A stretch of 64,000 nucleotides of DNA from Patescibacteria group bacterium (GCA_035506195.1 DATJPV010000036.1:16100-80099); one strand, 5' to 3'. Shown: positions 3,967-64,000, counted from the first letter of the stretch. Notes: generated by a model from the sequence alone, not told the origin. Program-made: numbers and translations.

Positions 3967-4037
3967 GCGAGAGTAGTTCAGTGGCAGAACACCAGCTTCC
4001 CAAGCTGGATATGGGGGTTCGATTCCCCTCTCTCGCT
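3967..4037 (+). tRNA. tRNA-Gly (anticodon CCC)
   Basis: Cloverleaf by eye: acceptor GCGAGAG/CTCTCGC, anticodon stem CCAGC/GCTGG, loop TTCCCAA, T-loop TTCGATT, discriminator U. No encoded CCA. Confidence 0.85.
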
Positions 4038-24379: not shown

Positions 24380-25008
24380 GAAAACGCATGGTCCGGGAGC
24401 AATTGCTCGCCCGGGGCATACAGGATGAGCGGGTAGAAGAGGCATTTCTGAAAGTCCCGCGGCACCTGTTTGTGCCTGAGAACAGCCGAAAAGATGCGTA
24501 TGCGGATTTTCCCGTTCCGATCGGAGAAGCTCAGACGATATCGCAGCCCTATATGGTAGCCTTGATGACCCAGCTCCTGGAGCTAAAAGGGCATGAGCGG
24601 GTTTTAGAGATCGGCACGGGTTCAGGGTATCAGGCGGCAATACTGGCAGAATTAGTAAAGCAGGTGTATAGTATCGAGCGGATCGCCGGTTTGGCGCAAA
24701 AGGCGGAGCTTCTTCTGCGCGAACTGGGCTATCGGAATATCAGCGTGGCGGCCGGCGACGGAACGCTGGGGATGCCGGAAGAGGCCCCGTTTGATGCCGT
24801 CATCATTACGGCAGCTGCCCCTCAGATCCCCGCGCCGCTGGTTGCGCAACTCAAAGATTCCGGCAGGCTGGTTGCGCCGCTGGGCCAGGAGCAGGCGAGC
24901 CAAGTATTGACCCTGTGCCGTAAGCAGGGAACGCGCCTGGAATCAAGAAGCATCTGCGGTTGCGTGTTCGTTCCCTTGCGCGGCGCATACGGGTGGAAAG
25001 ACGCCTAA
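24361..25008 (+). CDS. pcm: Protein-L-isoaspartate O-methyltransferase
   Basis: ISQPYMVALMTQLLEL and VLEIGTGSGYQAAILA SAM motif. Start taken at MEYAALRKRM inside the longer ORF. Confidence 0.85.
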   Translation: MEYAALRKRMVREQLLARGIQDERVEEAFLKVPRHLFVPENSRKDAYADFPVPIGEAQTISQPYMVALMTQLLELKGHERVLEIGTGSGYQAAILAELVKQVYSIERIAGLAQKAELLLRELGYRNISVAAGDGTLGMPEEAPFDAVIITAAAPQIPAPLVAQLKDSGRLVAPLGQEQASQVLTLCRKQGTRLESRSICGCVFVPLRGAYGWKDA

Positions 25009-25010
25009 AG

Positions 25011-25514
25011 ATGATACACGTCTATACGGGTAACGGAAAAGGCAAGACCACCGCAGCCCTGGGCCTTGCATTGAGGGCCGCAGGGGCAGGGCTAAAGGTT
25101 TTTATCGCCCAGTTTGCGAAAGGCAGGTCCTGCAGCGAGCTGACCGCCCTCAAGAAGATCGGCAATATCAGCTGCGTCCAGTTTGGCGCCGCCTCTTTCA
25201 TCCGGAAGGCGCCGACGCGCCGGGATAGAGAGCTGGCCGCCAAAGGGTTTGCCTGCGTCGTTGGCCTTGTCCGCAGGCGGCAGTATGACGTCGTGATCCT
25301 GGATGAGCTTAATGTTGTAGTCCGTCTGGGCCTGATCGATCCCGGCCAGCTTGCGTGTTTCTTGCGCAGCGCACCGTCGGCCGTAGAGATCGTCTTGACG
25401 GGCCGCGGGGCCCATCCGCAGGTCTTAAAGGCCGCCGACCTGATCAGCGAAATAAAAGAGGTCAGGCATTATTATCACCGGAACGTAAAAGCCCGTAAAG
25501 GGATCGAATTTTAA
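25011..25514 (+). CDS. cobO: Cob(I)yrinic acid a,c-diamide / corrinoid adenosyltransferase (CobO/BtuR type)
   Basis: MIHVYTGNGKGKTTAALGLALRAAGAG P-loop typical of BtuR/CobO. Confidence 0.8.
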   Translation: MIHVYTGNGKGKTTAALGLALRAAGAGLKVFIAQFAKGRSCSELTALKKIGNISCVQFGAASFIRKAPTRRDRELAAKGFACVVGLVRRRQYDVVILDELNVVVRLGLIDPGQLACFLRSAPSAVEIVLTGRGAHPQVLKAADLISEIKEVRHYYHRNVKARKGIEF

Positions 25515-31902: not shown

Positions 31903-31975
31903 GGGCCCATAGCTCAGTGGTTAGAGCAGGTGACTCATAATCACTTGGTCCGGGGTTCGAATCCCTGTGGGCCCA
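31903..31975 (+). tRNA. tRNA with CAU anticodon; by similarity to E. coli ileX most likely tRNA-Ile2 (lysidine), otherwise elongator tRNA-Met
   Basis: Acceptor GGGCCCA/TGGGCCC. D-arm and anticodon arm (GGTGA CTCATAA TCACT) differ from remembered ileX (GGCGA CTCATAA TCGCT) at one compensated base pair in the anticodon stem. Confidence 0.8.
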
Positions 31976-32006: not shown

Positions 32007-32083
32007 GGGCGCATGGCTCAGCTGGTTAGAGCGCCACACTCACATTGTGGAGATCGAGGGTCCGAATCCTTCTGCGCCCACCA
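32007..32083 (+). tRNA. tRNA-Val (anticodon CAC), CCA encoded
   Basis: Acceptor GGGCGCA/TGCGCCC, anticodon stem CCACA/TGTGG with loop CTCACAT, T-loop TCCGAAT, 3' ACCA. Confidence 0.8.
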
Positions 32084-33237: not shown

Positions 33238-33602
33238 CCGGAGGGAGCGGAACGTGGCTACTCCCAGATTATACGGGAGAGGAAAGTCCGGGCTCCGCAG
33301 GGCAACGTAGTGGGTAACGCCCACATGGCCAACATAGGCCAATGATTAGAGCTACAGAGACGGATTACCCCGTTCACGATTTGCCTTTAGTTTGCGAAGC
33401 AAAGTAAAGGCAGTGGGGTATGTGAAACGAGCAATCTCTACGTGGAGCAAGGCCGAATAGGAGACCAGGGGTTGCCCATCCCGTTATGAGTCTCGGGTAG
33501 GCTGCTTAATCCCGGCGGTAACGCCGGGCTTTAGAGGAATGGCCACTTTAGGAAGCGGTATTCGCATCCCACACAGAACCCGGCTTATTCTGTTCCGTCC
33601 GG
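33238..33602 (+). ncRNA. rnpB: RNase P RNA (bacterial type A)
   Basis: Universally conserved GAGGAAAGTCCGGGCTCC (P4) plus ...GGGTAGGCTGCTT... and 3' ACAGAACCCGGCTTAT elements. P1 pairing CCGGAGGGAGCGGAAC / GTTCCGTCCGG. Ends are approximate. Confidence 0.85.
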
Positions 33603-51884: not shown

Positions 51885-52106
51885 CTAGTTCTTCGCATAC
51901 GCGACCTGCGTATCCTCCTGTTGGTTCTGTTGCTCGGTTTTTTCCTCCTGCACAATCTGGGTTTGCGTTGCCGTCTCCCGCGCAGGGATGATGATGATGA
52001 CGGTGGCAGTAGCGCTTGCCTGTCCGGCATACACACAGTGGACCGGGATGCACAAAGATGCGAGCGTTGCGAATACGAGTATAAAGACTGTCAGTGTCTT
52101 TTTCAT
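51885..52106 (-). CDS. Small secreted peptide (73 aa) with donor-strand-like ATATVIIII motif and Gln/Glu/Thr-rich tail
   Basis: Strong ribosome-binding site AAGGAGG. Signal peptide ending VYAG. Mature N-terminus QASATATVIIIIPA resembles subunit 1 (TSTATATVTATV). Convergent with the outer-membrane-protein gene. Confidence 0.55.
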   Translation of the reverse strand: MKKTLTVFILVFATLASLCIPVHCVYAGQASATATVIIIIPARETATQTQIVQEEKTEQQNQQEDTQVAYAKN

Positions 52107-52207: not shown

Positions 52208-52471
52208 TCACCTTCCGTGGCCGGTGGTGGTACGTTGTCCCAAAACCTCCAGGACCCGACTTTCAAAATCCCTTTCAGACTTTATATTTTCTCCGGTGAT
52301 CCCCAGGTCTTTGACGAAATCGATCACCCAGGCGATCAATTTTGCCCGGGAGACCTTCAGGCCGGTAGAAAAGAGGGCGTCTTTTCCCATCTTGTCCAGG
52401 AAATCCACTTCTTCCCGGTTCAGGAAGGTCACAACGCGCTGATTTTTTTCTTCGGCAAGCACTGCGTCCAT
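52208..52471 (-). CDS. Small cytoplasmic protein, possible ribbon-helix-helix (CopG/Arc-like) regulator
   Basis: GGAG ribosome-binding site. The QRVVTFLNREEVDFLDKMGKD segment fits an RHH beta-strand plus helix. Preferred over the overlapping + ORF 52094..52534. Confidence 0.45.
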   Translation of the reverse strand: MDAVLAEEKNQRVVTFLNREEVDFLDKMGKDALFSTGLKVSRAKLIAWVIDFVKDLGITGENIKSERDFESRVLEVLGQRTTTGHGR

Positions 52472-52726
52472 TTGAATCTCCTATATAATGAAAACGGCCC
52501 CGTTACATTTCTGGGGCCGCATAAAAAACCCTAAAGAGGTCTTTAGGGTTTTTCTCCTCTTTGGCAGCTCAGCCTCCCGCTTGCGCGGGACTGTAGCTTT
52601 GCGCCCCAGCATTACTGCTAGTTAGCCTTTATCAGTAGGTCTTCCTAATTGTCAATTCAAGTATAGCACATTGTGGTAAGATTTCAAGGTTGCCAAAAGA
52701 TTTTTTTTACATTTTACAAATTGCGC

Positions 52727-57301: not shown

Positions 57302-58105
57302 ATGCATAAAGATTCCGCTTACCGGCTGTCCATTTTCTTTCTGTTGATACTGGTCGTCGTAGAAGGCTTTTTCCTTTTGCGGCTCCTGAAGCCTCCTGCG
57401 GCCAGGGCCGTCAAGCCAAAGCCCAGGCCTGCTGCTGCGGTTGCCAAAGGCAAGATCGCCATAGTCCTTGATGACTGGGGCTATAATCTCAATAATGAGG
57501 CGGTATTGGCGAGGATCAAGTATCCCTTGACGCTTTCGGTGCTGCCGAACCTGCCCTATTCGGTAGCCATCAGCGAGAAGGCGCGCCGCCTGGGCTTTGA
57601 AACCATCCTTCATTTGCCGATGGAGCCGCATGAGAAATACCGCCTGGAACACAATACGATCCTGACCACCATGGATGAAGCGGCTATTACCGGCATCATG
57701 GCGCAGGACCTGAGGGAATTCCCGGGCATCAAGGGCATTTCCAATCATCAGGGTTCCAAGGCTACCGAGGACCCCCGGACGATGAAGATCATCTTTGCGG
57801 AATTGAAGAACCGCGGGCTTTATTTCCTGGACAGCGTCGTATCCGCGCACTCGGTGTGCTCAGGCCTTGCCCGAAGCATGAAAATAGGCTTTGCCCGCAG
57901 GGATGTCTTTCTGGATAATAGCGACAACCCGGAGTATATCAAGGCTCAGCTTCAGAAATTGAAAGCCAAGGCCAGAAGCGCAGGCTACGCCATCGGCATC
58001 GGCCACGACCGCAAGAACACCCTGCAGGTTTTGGAAGAGATGATGCCTCTTTTTGCGCAAGAAGGCTACACATTCGTATTCGTATCGGAGCTTGCCTGGC
58101 AATGA
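57302..58105 (+). CDS. Divergent polysaccharide deacetylase family protein (YibQ-like)
   Basis: IAIVLDDWGYN...LPMEPHE...SNHQGSKAT pattern of PF04748. N-terminal TM helix. Confidence 0.7.
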   Translation: MHKDSAYRLSIFFLLILVVVEGFFLLRLLKPPAARAVKPKPRPAAAVAKGKIAIVLDDWGYNLNNEAVLARIKYPLTLSVLPNLPYSVAISEKARRLGFETILHLPMEPHEKYRLEHNTILTTMDEAAITGIMAQDLREFPGIKGISNHQGSKATEDPRTMKIIFAELKNRGLYFLDSVVSAHSVCSGLARSMKIGFARRDVFLDNSDNPEYIKAQLQKLKAKARSAGYAIGIGHDRKNTLQVLEEMMPLFAQEGYTFVFVSELAWQ

Positions 58106-59085
58106 TAGTCCTTGGCATCGAAACTTCCTGCGATGAGACTTCCGCGGCCCTGGTGAAAAACGGCCGGGATGTGCTTTCCAATGTGGTTAGTTCCAGCCTT
58201 GCGTTCCACAGCAAATACGGAGGGGTGGTCCCGGAGATCGCCTCGCGCATGCAGCTGGAGGCGATCGTCAAGGTAACAGATACGGCCTTGCGCCAGGCAG
58301 GCATCAAGCGCCAAAATATCGGCCTGGTCTGCGTGACCCACGCTCCGGGGCTCCTGGGTTCTTTGGTCGTGGGGCTTTCTTTTGCCAAGGCGCTGAGCGT
58401 AAGCCTCCGGGTGCCGGTGTTGGGCGTCAACCATCTCTGCAGCCACATCTATGCCAATTTTCTCGATGCCCGGCCGATACGCTTGCCGTTCGTTGCCCTC
58501 ATTATTTCCGGAGGGCATACGAGCCTGTTCTTTGTACGGGACTTCAACGCCATCCGCAGCATCGGCGCTACGCTTGACGATGCCTGCGGGGAGGCCTTTG
58601 ACAAAGTAGCAAAGATCCTCGGGCTGGGGTATCCCGGCGGGCCGCCTATCGAGCGGCTGGCCCTGCGCGGCGATCCGCACAAGTTCAGGTTTAAATGTTC
58701 CGAAACTCGCCGGCCCCTGGATTTCAGTTTCAGCGGGATAAAGACCGCGGTCCTGTATCAGGCCAAAGGCGCGAATGTGCGCGCTCCGGAAAAAGCAGAT
58801 ATTGCCGCTTCTTTTCAGGAGGCGGTGGTTGAGACGGTGGCCAGAAAAGCAATGGCTGCCTGCCGCAGGTACAAAGTCCCCCGGCTGGTAGTAGGAGGAG
58901 GGGTAGCGGCCAACAGCCGGCTGCGCCAAGTTTTCCGGCAGCAAGCCCCGGCAGCAGGCGTAGAGGTGTATTTCCCTCCCAAGCCGCTGTGTATGGATAA
59001 TGCGGCAATGGTTGCCGGGTTAGGTTATCGCCTGTATATGAAGGGCGCGCGTTCGGATTTAAGCCTCGGGGTAGAGCTGAACTAG
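58102..59085 (+). CDS. tsaD: tRNA N6-adenosine threonylcarbamoyltransferase
   Basis: MIVLGIETSCDETSAAL and Kae1/TsaD metal-binding motifs. Confidence 0.9.
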   Translation: MIVLGIETSCDETSAALVKNGRDVLSNVVSSSLAFHSKYGGVVPEIASRMQLEAIVKVTDTALRQAGIKRQNIGLVCVTHAPGLLGSLVVGLSFAKALSVSLRVPVLGVNHLCSHIYANFLDARPIRLPFVALIISGGHTSLFFVRDFNAIRSIGATLDDACGEAFDKVAKILGLGYPGGPPIERLALRGDPHKFRFKCSETRRPLDFSFSGIKTAVLYQAKGANVRAPEKADIAASFQEAVVETVARKAMAACRRYKVPRLVVGGGVAANSRLRQVFRQQAPAAGVEVYFPPKPLCMDNAAMVAGLGYRLYMKGARSDLSLGVELN

Positions 59086-59108: not shown

Positions 59109-59549
59109 ATGCTCACGGATCTGCAGATCATCGCACGGCTTACTTTATCCCTGGTATTGAGCGGCCTCATCGGCTTGGAGCGCCAGGTCCATCGCCGCAC
59201 CGCGGGTATGCGTACGCATATCCTGGTATGCCTGGGTTCCTGCCTTATCATGTTGACATCGCTGTATGTTTTTGATATATATAAACAGATAGCGCACCTG
59301 GACCCGACGCGCATCGCTGCCGGCATTACTACCGGCATCGGCTTTTTAGGGGCGGGAGCGATCATCCGCCAGAGAGAGACCGTTGATTCGGTCGTGGGCC
59401 TGACTACCGCGGCCAGCCTCTGGGTGGTCGCGGGTATCGGCATGGCAATAGGGTGCGGGTTTTACATCGCCGGGATATATACGACTGTCCTGGCGCTGGT
59501 CGTGCTTTTCTTTTTCCGGACCTTCGAAGCTAAAATATCGGTGAAGTAG
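59109..59549 (+). CDS. mgtC: MgtC/SapB-family membrane protein
   Basis: LTLSLVLSGLIGLERQ...RTHILVCLGS MgtC N-terminal signature. Confidence 0.8.
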   Translation: MLTDLQIIARLTLSLVLSGLIGLERQVHRRTAGMRTHILVCLGSCLIMLTSLYVFDIYKQIAHLDPTRIAAGITTGIGFLGAGAIIRQRETVDSVVGLTTAASLWVVAGIGMAIGCGFYIAGIYTTVLALVVLFFFRTFEAKISVK

Positions 59550-59560
59550 GACAAAAGGAG

Positions 59561-60073
59561 GTGGTTGCCGTGGCTTTTAAAAAGAAGATTGAAGAAAAAA
59601 TCCTTGATGTGGATGCGTCCATGCAGGGGACCCTGTCGTTCAAGGATCCCGTGAACCTGAGGGTAAACGGCAAATTTGAGGGGAACCTGGAGACCCGCGG
59701 GAACCTGACGATCGGCCCGACCGCCACGGTCATTGCCGATATCATCGGCGACAACATCATCATCGGCGGCAGGATCAAAGGCAAGGTCGTCGCCAAGGAA
59801 AGGCTGACGCTTTTGCCCAGCGCGGTCGTCGAGGGGGAGATCTACCCCGTGAAATTGAATGTTGCCGAAGGGGCGATCTTCGAAGGCAAATGCACCATGC
59901 TCCATGATTTTATGAACGCCGAAGAGCTGGCGCGTTACCTGGAAGTCGATCTCAACGCCATCCTTGACTGGGCCAATAACGGCAAGGTCCCGGGCGCTAA
60001 GGAAGGCAACAACTGGAAGTTCGAGCGCAAGGCGATCGACTCCTGGGTTGCCGCCGGCAAGGTCGGCAAGTAA
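59561..60073 (+). CDS. Bactofilin-domain protein fused to C-terminal excisionase-type HTH (HTH_17)
   Basis: Bactofilin beta-helix repeats (GNLTIGPTATVIADIIGDNIIIGGRIKGKVVAKERLTLLPSAVVEGEIY) followed by EELARYLEVDLNAILDWANNGKVPGAKEGNNWKFERKAIDSWV. Confidence 0.65.
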   Translation: MVAVAFKKKIEEKILDVDASMQGTLSFKDPVNLRVNGKFEGNLETRGNLTIGPTATVIADIIGDNIIIGGRIKGKVVAKERLTLLPSAVVEGEIYPVKLNVAEGAIFEGKCTMLHDFMNAEELARYLEVDLNAILDWANNGKVPGAKEGNNWKFERKAIDSWVAAGKVGK

Positions 60074-60074
60074 A

Positions 60075-60386
60075 ATGACGGAAGAAAAACTTTTGACGAT
60101 CAGGGATGTTTCCATCGCCCTGGGGGTCTCTGAAAAAGAGGTCATGGACCTGGCAGAGGCAGGGCAGCTGCCCGCATACAAGATCGGCGGAATGTATCTG
60201 CGCTTTAAGGCGCACCAGATCGAGGAGTACAAACGCAAAATGCGCGCCGCCGCGTCTTATCAGCCCACGCAGGAAACGTATTCGCTGGGCGAGAGGATCC
60301 GCGATTTTTTCTATTTCAATGATTTTTACATCCTCTCGGCGCTGCTTATCATGATCATGCTCGTAGTCATATTGCGGGGATATTAA
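60075..60386 (+). CDS. Excisionase-type HTH (HTH_17) protein with C-terminal TM anchor
   Basis: LTIRDVSIALGVSEKEVMDLAEAGQLPAYKIGGMYLRFKAHQIEEY plus a C-terminal hydrophobic helix. Start at MTEEKLL within ORF 59964. Confidence 0.55.
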   Translation: MTEEKLLTIRDVSIALGVSEKEVMDLAEAGQLPAYKIGGMYLRFKAHQIEEYKRKMRAAASYQPTQETYSLGERIRDFFYFNDFYILSALLIMIMLVVILRGY

Positions 60387-60392
60387 GATATA

Positions 60393-61061
60393 ATGGCTTC
60401 TACTCGAGGGTTTTGCGACCTGGGTTTTGCAAAATTGGATGTCGACAGGCAAAAGCGGCGCGGTTTTTCGGAAGCGATCTACTGCCCCGGCAAGAGCCGG
60501 GAGCATCTCAAGAAAATCTCCCTTCGGCTGTTGGCTGCCAAGCAGGACCTGCTCCTGACGAAACTGGACCAGCCCACCTACGCGTACTTGAAACGCTCGA
60601 TCCGTTCCCTGCGCTACAATCCTCTGGCAAAGATCGGGTTTTGCGTCCGTACGCGCACGCACGCCCAAAAGGCGGATGTCATAGTCATCTCTGCCGGGAC
60701 TGCGGATGTGCCGGTAGCGGAGGAGGCGGCAGTGACCCTGGAGGTCATGGGCAGCCCGGTGGTCAGGCTTTACGATGTAGGGGTCGCCGGCGTGCACCGG
60801 CTGATGAGCAATCTTGATACCATACGCAAGGCCAAAGTAGTCATCGTCGTTGCCGGGATGGAAGGGGCCCTGGCAAGCCTGGTGAGCGGCCTGGTAAGCG
60901 CTCCGGTCATTGCCGTGCCTACCAGCTGCGGCTACGGAGCCAGTTTCGGCGGCTTGTCGGCACTTCTGACGATGCTCAATAGTTGTTCTCCGGGCGTAGC
61001 AACGGTTAATATCGATAACGGCTTCGGCGCGGGGTATTTCGCGCATTTGATCAATCAATAG
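60393..61061 (+). CDS. larB: LarB-like PurE/AIR-carboxylase-family protein (nickel-pincer cofactor biosynthesis carboxylase/hydrolase)
   Basis: PurE-fold motifs VIVISAGTADVPVAEEA...VIVVAGMEGALASLV with a LarB-type N-terminal extension. Confidence 0.7.
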   Translation: MASTRGFCDLGFAKLDVDRQKRRGFSEAIYCPGKSREHLKKISLRLLAAKQDLLLTKLDQPTYAYLKRSIRSLRYNPLAKIGFCVRTRTHAQKADVIVISAGTADVPVAEEAAVTLEVMGSPVVRLYDVGVAGVHRLMSNLDTIRKAKVVIVVAGMEGALASLVSGLVSAPVIAVPTSCGYGASFGGLSALLTMLNSCSPGVATVNIDNGFGAGYFAHLINQ

Positions 61062-61077
61062 GAGGTAGTACACGCAC

Positions 61078-62409
61078 ATGGCACTTTCCGGCTTAGATAT
61101 TTATAAACTTTTACCGAAGACCAACTGCAAGGAATGCGGGTTTGCGACCTGCCTTGCGTTTGCGATGCAGCTTGCCAAGAAGGCGGTCAGTATCGAGAAA
61201 TGCCCCTTCTTAAGCGAAGATGCCAAAAAAATGCTGGAGGCTTCGAGCCTGCCGCCCATCAAGCTGGTCACCATAGGACAGCCTGACAGGAAGCTTGAGG
61301 TCGGCAATGAAACGGTGCTCTTCCGCCACGAAGAGAAGTTCCATCATCCTGCCGGTATCGGCTTTATCCTTCAAGACAGCCTCAGCGACGAGCAATTGGC
61401 CAAAAAGGCCCAGGCGATCGACCGCCTGCAATTTGAACGCGTCGGCCAGAAGATAAGCGTTGACCTGGTGGCGCTTGCGCAGACCGGTTCGGCAGAGCGT
61501 TTCCTGAAGGCGGTGCAGCTGGTTTCGCGCACGACCACGCTTAGCATGGCCTTAGTCAGCAATGACCCCGCAGCTCTGCAGCCGGCATTGGAGTTCCTCA
61601 AGGGCAAAAAACCGCTGATATATCCGGACGCAGCCGGAGAGAACATTAGCCGGATAGGCGGCCTGGCGGCAAGCTTCAAGGTTCCCATGGTAGCGGTGGC
61701 GCCCGATCTGGACAAACTGTCGCAGCTGACCAGGGAATTGAACAGCCTCGGCGTCCAGGAACTCCTTCTGGATACGGGCAAAAAACCGCTGGCGGAAAAG
61801 ATATGGGACCTTACCCAGCTGCGCCGGCAGGCGCTTAAAAAATCAAACCGCAGCCTGGGGTATCCGGCGCTGGCCGTGGTGGATTGCGCCGATCCGTACG
61901 AAGAGGTCATGGAAGCAGCGACCTATATCTCAAAGTACGCCGGCATCGTGCTCTTGAAGGGCGATGCGCCGTGGCAGGCGCTGGCATTGTTGACCCTGCG
62001 CCAGAACATTTACACCGACCCCCAGAAACCCCTGCAGATCGAGCCGAAACTCTATCCCATCGGCAATGCCGGGGCTGCCTCACCGGTCCTGGTAACGACG
62101 AATTTTTCGCTTTCATACTATACGGTCCTAGGAGAGGTCGAGGCAAGCAGGGTGCCGTCTTACATCATGAGCGTCGATACCGAGGGCATGTCGGTGCTGA
62201 CGGCCTGGGCAGCAGAGAAGTTCACCCCGGAAAAGATCACCGCATCCCTGAAAAAATTCAACGTCGCCGATACCGTTTCTCACCGGAACCTGGTGATCCC
62301 CGGTTATGTCGCCGTCATGAGCGGCCAACTGGAGGAGGACTCCGGCTGGAAGGTGGTCGTCGGTCCGAAAGAGGCAGCCGGGATACCGTCGTTTTTGAAA
62401 AACCTGTAG
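61078..62409 (+). CDS. acsC: Corrinoid iron-sulfur protein large subunit (CODH/ACS gamma subunit)
   Basis: N-terminal 4Fe-4S motif LPKTNCKECGFATCLAFAMQLA...KCPFLSE followed by a TIM-barrel corrinoid-binding domain. Length 443 aa is typical. Confidence 0.75.
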   Translation: MALSGLDIYKLLPKTNCKECGFATCLAFAMQLAKKAVSIEKCPFLSEDAKKMLEASSLPPIKLVTIGQPDRKLEVGNETVLFRHEEKFHHPAGIGFILQDSLSDEQLAKKAQAIDRLQFERVGQKISVDLVALAQTGSAERFLKAVQLVSRTTTLSMALVSNDPAALQPALEFLKGKKPLIYPDAAGENISRIGGLAASFKVPMVAVAPDLDKLSQLTRELNSLGVQELLLDTGKKPLAEKIWDLTQLRRQALKKSNRSLGYPALAVVDCADPYEEVMEAATYISKYAGIVLLKGDAPWQALALLTLRQNIYTDPQKPLQIEPKLYPIGNAGAASPVLVTTNFSLSYYTVLGEVEASRVPSYIMSVDTEGMSVLTAWAAEKFTPEKITASLKKFNVADTVSHRNLVIPGYVAVMSGQLEEDSGWKVVVGPKEAAGIPSFLKNL

Positions 62410-62410
62410 A

Positions 62411-64000
62411 ATGGAAAAAATAAAAGTTACATTTTATCCCGACCGCACATCCGTAGAGGTAGCAAAAGGCGAGCCTATCCTTTCTGCGCTGTCTGCCGCC
62501 GGCATTCACATTCATTCTGCCTGCGGCGGTAATGGCGGCTGCGGGCGCTGTAAGGTAAAAGTAAAAAGCGGCAAGGTCTGCATGCGGCCTACCGGGCTGA
62601 TCAGCCCGGAAGAGCGCAGCAAAGGGATCTTCCTGGCCTGCCTGACCTCTGCCGAAAGCGACCTGGAGGTCGAAGTACCGCAGGAATCACGCCAGGAATA
62701 CGGCGTCTTGAGCCCTGAGGAGATCGATACCCGCCTGAAGGGCATCTATGCGGCGGCCGAAGACGTGGAGGCTGCCTCCGCCCAGGCCCCGGCGGCCGGC
62801 TTTACCTATGGGCCGCTGGCAACCAAGGTGTATATGGAGCTTTTGCCTCCTGACTTGAATGATAAGACCAGCGACCTGGAAAGGCTGGAACGCCAGATAC
62901 GTTTTGTCGTCAAGAACGCGGACAACATCGCGGTCTCCAACCCCAGCGCAAACCTGACCTTCATCCGCGAACTGGGCAAGCAGCTGCGCAGCGCCAACTG
63001 GAAGGTGACGGTTACCCTCGGCAAGCGCGCCAACGACGCCCTGGAGATGCTTTTGATCGAGCCGCAGGATACCACGGGCCTGAATTACGGCATCTGTTTT
63101 GATATCGGGACAACGACCCTGTCTGCGCAGTTGATCGACTTGAATAACGGCACGGTTCTGGGCACCCGGGGCACCTACAACAAACAAGCCACCTTCGGCA
63201 GCGACGTGATCAGCCGGATCGTATACGCGCATCAGGCAAACGGCCTGGAGAAGCTCCATCAGGCGGTCATCGAAGAATTGAACCGCATGGCGTATGAACT
63301 GATCCTGTCGGAGCATATCCCGACCAACAGCGTCAATTATTTTGTCTGCGCGGGCAATACGACCATGACCCAGCTTCTTTTGCGGGTCGACCCTACGTAT
63401 ATTCGCAAAGAGCCGTATGTGCCGACCGCCAATTTTTTTCCTGTCGTCAACGCCCACGACGAAGGCTTTAAGCTCAATCAGCATGCGCTCCTGGCCTGCG
63501 TCCCCGGGGTATCCAGTTATGTCGGCGGGGATGTGACTGCGGGCGTCTTATCCAGCGGCCTGGACACCCAGGAGCACTTGTGCATGCTTATCGATATCGG
63601 CACTAACGGCGAGATCGTGGTGGGGAACAAGGAATTTCTGATCTCTGCCGCTGCTTCGGCAGGGCCGGCGTTCGAAGGCTCCGGGGTAGCCTGCGGGATG
63701 CGGGCATCGCCGGGGGCGATACAGAAAGTCAAGATCAGCCCGCGTACTTTCGAGGTATCCTGCGAAGTGATCGGCAAGATCCTTCCGCAGGGCATCTGCG
63801 GCTCGGGGTATATCGACGCCATATCCGGCATGCTGCAGGCGGGCCTATTGGATAAGAACGGCAAGATAAGGGCGCGTTCCCATCCCCGTATCCGGCAGAC
63901 AGATTCCGGCAAAGAATTCGTGCTGGTGCACAAAGAAGACTGCGATACGGCTTACGATATTGTTATTACCGAAGCGGACATCGAGAACATAAAACGGGCA
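62411..64000 (+). CDS. RACo-like corrinoid activation/regeneration protein (2Fe-2S ferredoxin + ASKHA ATPase), 3'-truncated by window end
   Basis: Not in the ORF track (no stop before the window end). Plant-type ferredoxin motif HSACGGNGGCGRCKVKV, then a DUF4445/ASKHA-like domain (GICFDIGTTT...LIDIGTNGEIV). 530 in-frame codons. Confidence 0.7.
   Translation, partial: MEKIKVTFYPDRTSVEVAKGEPILSALSAAGIHIHSACGGNGGCGRCKVKVKSGKVCMRPTGLISPEERSKGIFLACLTSAESDLEVEVPQESRQEYGVLSPEEIDTRLKGIYAAAEDVEAASAQAPAAGFTYGPLATKVYMELLPPDLNDKTSDLERLERQIRFVVKNADNIAVSNPSANLTFIRELGKQLRSANWKVTVTLGKRANDALEMLLIEPQDTTGLNYGICFDIGTTTLSAQLIDLNNGTVLGTRGTYNKQATFGSDVISRIVYAHQANGLEKLHQAVIEELNRMAYELILSEHIPTNSVNYFVCAGNTTMTQLLLRVDPTYIRKEPYVPTANFFPVVNAHDEGFKLNQHALLACVPGVSSYVGGDVTAGVLSSGLDTQEHLCMLIDIGTNGEIVVGNKEFLISAAASAGPAFEGSGVACGMRASPGAIQKVKISPRTFEVSCEVIGKILPQGICGSGYIDAISGMLQAGLLDKNGKIRARSHPRIRQTDSGKEFVLVHKEDCDTAYDIVITEADIENIKRA

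Follow-up and report, generated by a model that had tools for sequence, protein, structure and literature searches.

A larB gene beside a Wood-Ljungdahl corrinoid protein module in a predicted Omnitrophota genome probably reflects inherited gene order

LarB catalyzes the first step of nickel-pincer nucleotide (NPN) biosynthesis, in which nicotinic acid adenine dinucleotide (NaAD) is converted to the mononucleotide of pyridinium-3,5-biscarboxylic acid (P2CMN) (PMC9283937). Genomes carrying larB, larC, and larE without the lactate racemase gene larA are a known class, amounting to approximately 15% of genomes (PMC11796402), and NPN enzymes other than LarA have been found through lar gene neighborhoods, for example, the aldo-keto reductase NphT (PMC13524815). 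Seymour et al. 2023 (PMC10066038) described complete and partial Wood-Ljungdahl pathways, including variants without AcsA/CooS, for two Omnitrophota classes, Velamenicoccia and Gorgyraia. Here, we analyzed a larB gene near the 3′ end of a 64,000-nucleotide (nt) stretch of DNA deposited as a Patescibacteria group bacterium (GCA_035506195.1, DATJPV010000036.1:16100-80099; the whole stretch is referred to as the window). The gene directly precedes acsC and acsV, which encode the large subunit of the corrinoid iron-sulfur protein (CFeSP) and its reductive activator, RACo. A first-pass annotation had regarded this placement as unusual and as pointing to a different role for LarB or to a cofactor-maturation link. 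We found instead that larB consistently takes the last or next-to-last place in a gene string shared across the phylum, whether acs genes follow or not. We consider it likely, with a probability of roughly 0.7, that the larB and acs units are neighbors by vertical inheritance, probably co-transcribed, without a shared function.

Identities of larB, acsC, and acsV

The product of the window larB gene (Table 1) scored 285.5 bits against the LarB equivalog model NF033503 (cutoff, 175), over model positions 1 to 208 of 209, and gave an ungapped alignment to Lactiplantibacillus plantarum LarB (structures 7MJ0 and 8SOQ) over residues 9 to 222 (217 bits). In this alignment, Cys198 and Glu157 of the window protein fall opposite Cys221 and Glu180 of the L. 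plantarum enzyme. We take Cys221 to be the catalytic cysteine that forms a cysteinyl-pyridine intermediate, a role that reportedly goes back to work by Rankin et al. in 2021. This cysteine of the PurE-like C-terminal domain was invariant in all 119 LarBs aligned. Of the 52 columns that are near-universal among LarBs, 51, the catalytic Cys among them, were retained in the clade to which the window belongs, described below. By family membership, the window LarB is predicted to carboxylate and hydrolyze NaAD to P2CMN. The likeness to L. plantarum LarB runs from end to end, with two differences: the window protein is without the short N-terminal extension of the L. plantarum enzyme, and its N-terminal GKTxxQ motif departs from the L. 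plantarum type. Of 93 other LarBs, 89 have Gln at position 38 of this motif, but of the 26 members of the window clade, 22 have His there; in this clade, Thr35 is also variable and position 36 is Arg or Lys. Written as a consensus, GKTxxQ[IV] becomes GK(x)(R/K)xH L (LarB residues 35 to 41; window positions 60495 to 60515). An open reading frame (ORF) of 360 amino acids (aa) on the minus strand (59997 to 61079) runs antisense to larB and to the gene preceding it, and similar antisense ORFs occur in relatives (family F23). We rejected this ORF as a gene; it mirrors conserved plus-strand coding sequence and is most likely a by-product.

AcsC scored 555.6 bits against NF003195 (cutoff, 306) and contains the Pfam domains FeS (residues 12 to 44) and CdhD (residues 64 to 439). 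An N-terminal [4Fe-4S] motif (Cys17/20/25/42) is readable in its translation, in line with CFeSP large-subunit membership. The window ends inside acsV, so that the first 530 of approximately 651 AcsV residues, about 81% of the gene, are present; the full-length orthologue at locus L093 (numbers with the prefix L denote loci of this analysis) has 651 residues. The Pfam domains of AcsV follow the RACo order of Fer2, RACo_linker, Raco_middle, and RACo_C_ter. Its score against NF040756 (480 bits) lies below the curated cutoff of 800 because the last ~120 residues are beyond the window end. Compared with the CFeSP (2H9A/4C1N) and RACo (3ZYY) of Carboxydothermus hydrogenoformans, the window proteins, which are known from their genes alone, show a full-length match for AcsC (458 bits to 2H9A) and the same four-domain architecture for AcsV (393 bits to 3ZYY). 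All three genes lie on the plus strand, with spacers of 16 nt between larB and acsC and 1 nt between acsC and acsV. This bears out the first-pass annotation, which had read a LarB-like gene directly before acsC and a RACo-like activator: the three genes pass their family models, allowing for the truncation of AcsV, and match solved structures. It had also stated correctly that genes for the CFeSP small subunit, methyltransferase, acetyl-CoA synthase (ACS), and carbon monoxide dehydrogenase (CODH) are not in the window, as no tblastn match to acsD, acsE, or cooC was found within the 64 kb and a Pfam scan of the larger window ORFs revealed no ACS or CODH domain.

Three independent assemblies with an identical locus (L001 to L003) end 380 to 570 nt into acsV, at window positions of approximately 62790 to 62980, where the window reads through. 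Four public contigs with an identical LarB end inside acsV, before the window end. The breaks in the three assemblies suggest that a repeat, a paralogue, or strain variation is present there.

Gene order around larB in Omnitrophota

Neighboring genes were mapped by tblastn and gene-family clustering at 80 LarB loci from species-representative genomes, and a second route used two homologue searches with Omnitrophota LarCs plus the contexts of the loci found. The string gatCAB-ctpB-deacetylase-tsaD-mgtC-bactofilin/HTH-HTH-larB (HTH, helix-turn-helix) was present in every Omnitrophota locus, with an HTH_17 gene directly 5′ of larB throughout. All acs-bearing Omnitrophota recovered had tsaD-mgtC-bactofilin-HTH-larB followed by acsC-acsV, with nothing, an FmdE-family gene, or larC between larB and acsC. 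The larB-acsC adjacency is not due to chance, as it recurs in 25 non-redundant larC-less lineages and in 5 more with larC interposed. The 25 larC-less lineages make up the window clade; larB and acsC were direct neighbors in 14 of them (gap, 7 to 177 nt), and an FmdE-family gene lay between the two in the other 11. The five deeper lineages showed the order larB-larC-acsC-acsV-cooC-acsD-acsE. In at least eight lineages (L045, L089, L090, L092, L096, L097, L176, and L181, with L089 from the 1.5-Mb record CP070797.1), the same string and larB-larC led into unrelated genes, and the locus held no acs operon.

The FmdE-family gene (PF02663; E = 4e-20) encodes 133 aa and occupies the exact larC slot in L007, L009, L010, L012 (7913 to 8314), L013, L016, L021, L022, and L025 to L027. 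It is absent from the window and from L093. The HGHxCPG-type motif of the family reads HGHLGP in these proteins, with the Cys replaced.

A LarB phylogeny, which the first-pass annotation had proposed as a check, and an independent tree of TsaD, MgtC, and bactofilin agreed on the nesting of these arrangements. In both trees, larB-larC lineages without acs genes were basal, larB-larC-acs lineages came next, and the larC-less acs clade was derived and monophyletic. From this nesting, and from the occurrence of the string with or without acs genes, it follows that larB belongs to the upstream conserved block, which the acs module simply abuts. The reading of an unusual placement that points to a cofactor-maturation link is therefore not supported, and the result matches what the first-pass annotation had named as its possible refutation, membership of larB in an unrelated neighboring operon. 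Median spacers in the block were 27 nt for tsaD-mgtC, 4 nt for acsE-dagK, and 20 nt for larB-acsC; the 16-nt spacer of the window carries no special weight, because plainly unrelated gene pairs are equally tight.

Among approximately 50 loci from other phyla, none had acsC or acsV within 10 kb of LarB, and larC and/or larE stood beside larB in most. DnaG and RpoD genes 3′ of LarB in Acidobacteriota and Aminicenantales loci were considered as a meaningful link and rejected, being housekeeping genes. In addition, tsaD lies within approximately 1 kb of larB in Planctomycetota metagenome-assembled genomes, on the same strand, and in Nitrospina, on the opposite strand (L062:419-2391, L080:5432-8003, L030, L049, and L051), which hints that a tsaD-larB neighborhood may be older than Omnitrophota.

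L093, the nearest relative whose sequence extends further, with a LarB 89% identical to that of the window, was used as a proxy for the sequence past the window end. At this locus, acsC and acsV are followed by a CooC-type ATPase gene (84 bits to CooC1, 3KJE), acsD, and acsE, and then by a diacylglycerol kinase gene and unrelated genes. The order acsC-acsV-cooC-like-acsD-acsE was also found in more than 20 further Omnitrophota loci, with acsD (NF003376, 388 bits) two genes past acsV. Neither acsB nor acsA/cooS was detected within 6 to 8 kb downstream in any relative locus, and no clustering of these genes with acsCDE was seen among the relatives' downstream genes or the larger window ORFs. The methyl-branch module announced in the first-pass annotation thus continues past the window end as foreseen; of the genes to be looked for there, acsD and acsE were present in relatives, and acsB and acsA were not within the distance covered. 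The acsB and CODH genes may be encoded at another place in the genome or, as in some Omnitrophota, be missing. Collectively, these findings support the view that the three genes are the start of a Wood-Ljungdahl CFeSP/methyl-transfer module running past the window end, apart from larB, which belongs to the upstream block.

We take the order of the Moorella thermoacetica cluster to be cooC-acsA-acsB-acsC-acsV-acsF-acsD-acsE. Acetogen clusters of this type share the acsC-acsV adjacency with the window and the sub-order acsC-acsV-cooC/acsF-like-acsD-acsE with L093 and the more than 20 further loci. In contrast to these clusters, which have acsA and acsB inside, the Omnitrophota module has neither gene adjacent to it, and neither lies in the 6 to 8 kb that follow or the 60 kb that precede it. 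Its flanks also differ from those of the acetogen cluster and consist of housekeeping genes, with larB upstream and dagK, tilS, and ftsH, together with a pterin-binding (folP-like) gene, 3′ of acsE in relatives. The window fits the Omnitrophota pathway variants of Seymour et al. 2023 (PMC10066038).

Close LarB homologues with a source name were almost all from Candidatus Omnitrophota, and the best match among GTDB representative genomes was 73% identical. To judge from these sequences, the source organism is a Candidatus Omnitrophota bacterium. The identical LarB (P0001) is labeled "Patescibacteria group bacterium," and the syntenic relatives L012, L014, and L032 are labeled Planctomycetales, Pacebacteria, or Planctomycetia. 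By gene order and sequence, they all fall with Omnitrophota, and the labels are probably misassigned.

Explanations for the larB-acsC adjacency

In the history that we favor, two functionally separate units would adjoin by descent: larB, for the first NPN step, and the acs genes from acsC-acsV onward. Originally with larC, larB would have been the 3′ end of the housekeeping string gatCAB-ctpB-(deacetylase)-tsaD-mgtC-bactofilin-HTH-larB-larC, and the acs module would be an add-on at the 3′ side of larB-larC in Wood-Ljungdahl-bearing lineages. In the window clade, larC was probably lost from its slot, which the FmdE-family gene occupies in about half of the clade; this loss would have brought larB up against acsC, with the short spacer and probable co-transcription now seen in the window. 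Within the acs module, AcsC and AcsD are predicted to make up the corrinoid protein, by which the methyl group would pass to acetyl-CoA synthase from AcsE, the putative methyltetrahydrofolate:corrinoid methyltransferase of the Wood-Ljungdahl pathway. AcsV would re-reduce inactive Co(II) using ATP, and the CooC-like ATPase would act as a nickel-insertion accessory protein.

Several observations weigh against a purely inherited neighborhood. The adjacency was kept in all of the approximately 30 acs-bearing lineages, down to ~58% LarB identity, and the larC and acsC reading frames overlap by ~16 to 19 nt in larC-bearing lineages, so that co-expression is likely; every acs locus examined was, moreover, reached via LarB or LarC. 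Persistent adjacency and overlapping frames would also be expected if larB, with larC where present, were a true member of the acs operon and NPN or P2CMN served a Wood-Ljungdahl-associated enzyme, for instance, as the hydride-transfer cofactor of a client other than LarA. The spacer between larB and acsC is too short to hold a promoter, a promoter-like site is found just 5′ of larB, and there are precedents both for NPN enzymes other than LarA, found via lar neighborhoods, and for genomes with larBCE and no larA. However, the same larB-larC placement in lineages without acs at the locus, the lack of any LarB-acs association in the loci from outside the phylum, and the equal tightness and conservation of every gene pair in the block make such a coupling very unlikely. 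The operon also holds no candidate client enzyme, all of its members having well-known cofactors. In the literature searched, LarB was linked neither to CODH nor to corrinoid proteins or the Wood-Ljungdahl pathway; the only match containing both "Omnitroph" and "nickel-pincer" concerned THI4 thiazole synthases, and a term search of the text and supplements of Seymour et al. 2023 returned lar genes only as KEGG orthology (KO) entries, with the larB-acs order undiscussed.

The fate of larC also counts against the inherited-neighbor reading. In all 11 lineages reached via LarC, larC lay directly after larB and never elsewhere, and neither the 64-kb window nor the ±10 kb examined in 25 sister lineages gave a tblastn match (E ≤ 1e-3) to larC, larE, or larA, in contrast to L. 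plantarum, where the lar genes form one operon. The window clade may thus have no larC at all, in which case LarB would be cut off from its known pathway. Mean pairwise identities in this clade were 0.71 for LarB, 0.65 for TsaD, and 0.67 for AcsC; LarB is not decaying there, because the LarB/TsaD identity ratio of 1.10 matches those of larC-bearing clades (1.13 and 1.12). If larC, and perhaps larE, had been lost genome-wide, LarB could have been retained in a role apart from NPN synthesis, such as supplying P2CMN for some other use or acting on a different pyridine nucleotide. The vacancy of an otherwise invariant slot, the undiminished constraint on LarB, and the Gln38-to-His change speak for this, but we regard it as unlikely: nearly all of the near-universal columns are kept, including the catalytic Cys; the motif change is weak evidence because it represents a single phylogenetic event (n = 1); L028, basal in the clade and without larC in the slot, retains the Gln; and larC and larE may simply lie elsewhere in the clade's genomes. 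A more specific form of this proposal is distinctly unlikely. It holds that larC was lost in a large, abundant clade (more than 120 LarB protein clusters, ~25 species-level lineages), in which LarB, encoded by the first gene of the CFeSP operon and carrying the Gln38-to-His change, stayed under full purifying selection. LarB would then be NPN independent and possibly tied to the corrinoid or methyl branch, or the FmdE-family protein found in the larC slot of half of these lineages would replace LarC as a metal insertase. Finally, the sole Pfam match of the window LarB is AIRC (PF00731; residues 96 to 220), as would suit a misannotated PurE-type aminoimidazole ribonucleotide carboxylase/mutase of purine synthesis. 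Model and structure scores rule this out almost completely: the PurE model TIGR01162 gave 35 bits (cutoff, 150), far from the score reached with the LarB model, PurE structures gave at most 37 bits against the 217 bits of the LarB structures, and the protein has both the N-terminal domain specific to LarB and the catalytic Cys.

A metagenome scan by LarC alignment returned, among the matches listed, mostly LarCs of ~40% identity without Omnitrophota block genes nearby, and it missed the query's own contig; no absence of larC follows from it. Omnitrophota genomes 58 and 231, both listed in the source data of Seymour et al. 2023, have KO entries for larB, larC, and larE and none for larA or acs genes; NPN biosynthesis therefore exists in Omnitrophota independently of the Wood-Ljungdahl pathway. 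Both genomes belong to the larBCE-without-larA class (PMC11796402), in which NPN would have a client other than LarA. Unlike NphT-type neighborhoods (PMC13524815), the window has no aldo-keto reductase-type or other candidate client next to larB, and larC is missing beside it. In several phyla, an oxidoreductase-like protein of ~330 to 380 aa with a C-terminal Cys-rich segment (family F21) is encoded beside lar genes, adjoining larB, larC, or larE in L041, L061, L063, L065, L068, L077, and L078. This family may belong to the NPN-dependent aldo-keto reductases (PMC13524815).

The LarB, CFeSP large subunit, and RACo of this uncultured Omnitrophota genome are ordinary representatives of established families, and their pathway context is known as well. 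If the juxtaposition of larB and acsC is, as we propose, a vertically inherited gene order, it warns against reading a common function into close and conserved gene neighborhoods of streamlined genomes. To research on the nickel-pincer cofactor, Omnitrophota offer a larB-larC pair without larA in constant housekeeping surroundings, with one big clade that appears to be larC-less and has kept LarB. Should both larC and larE prove to be missing from this clade, a LarB function beyond NPN synthesis would have a natural test case there.

Regulatory and other features of the window

The promoter-like match upstream of larB (Table 1) lies ~40 nt 5′ of the larB start and was the best on the plus strand; the 8 sites found, against 4.2 ± 2.2 expected, are not significant alone. 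The site is compatible with a putative larB-acsC transcript. No riboswitch or other Rfam element was found between larB and acsC.

The first-pass annotation had further linked cobO to the larB-acs genes. This link was rejected, as cobO lies 35 kb from larB and is surrounded by unrelated genes, its neighbors being a PCMT methyltransferase gene and a TonB-like gene. The other window ORFs scanned were housekeeping genes, including those for PFK, ThiC, aromatic amino acid synthesis, DnaG, RpoD, LepA, GatCAB, and TsaD.

Table 1. Features located in the window (positions counted from its first nucleotide)
Feature	Position	Strand	Basis or remark
Three tRNA genes	3967-4037, 31903-31975, 32007-32080	+	
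cobO, CobA/CobO/BtuR adenosyltransferase	24960-25514		193 bits
Bacterial class A RNase P RNA	33244-33600	+	176 bits
tsaD	58102-59085	+	Pfam TsaD, 289 bits; member of conserved string
mgtC-family gene	59109-59549	+	Pfam MgtC, 141 bits; member of conserved string
Bactofilin-HTH_17 fusion	59570-60073	+	Pfam Bactofilin and HTH_17; position conserved
Small HTH_17 (excisionase-type) DNA-binding protein	60075-60386	+	103 aa; gene calls and Pfam on identical contigs
Sigma-70-like promoter match, TTTACA-16-TATCAT	60325-60352	+	10/12; consensus match only
larB	60393-61061	+	222-aa ORF; NCBIfam NF033503, Pfam AIRC, PDB 7MJ0/8SOQ alignment
acsC (cdhE), CFeSP large (gamma) subunit	61078-62409	+	443 aa; NF003195, Pfam FeS and CdhD, 2H9A
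acsV/RACo, ATP-dependent reductive activator of corrinoid protein	62411-64000, open at window end	+	NF040756, four Pfam domains, 3ZYY

A c-di-GMP-I riboswitch was also detected on the minus strand (52560 to 52637; 64 bits, with the gathering score at 35). It lies upstream of two small minus-strand ORFs without a Pfam match, at approximately 52208 to 52471 (87 aa) and at 51885 to 52106 (73 aa).

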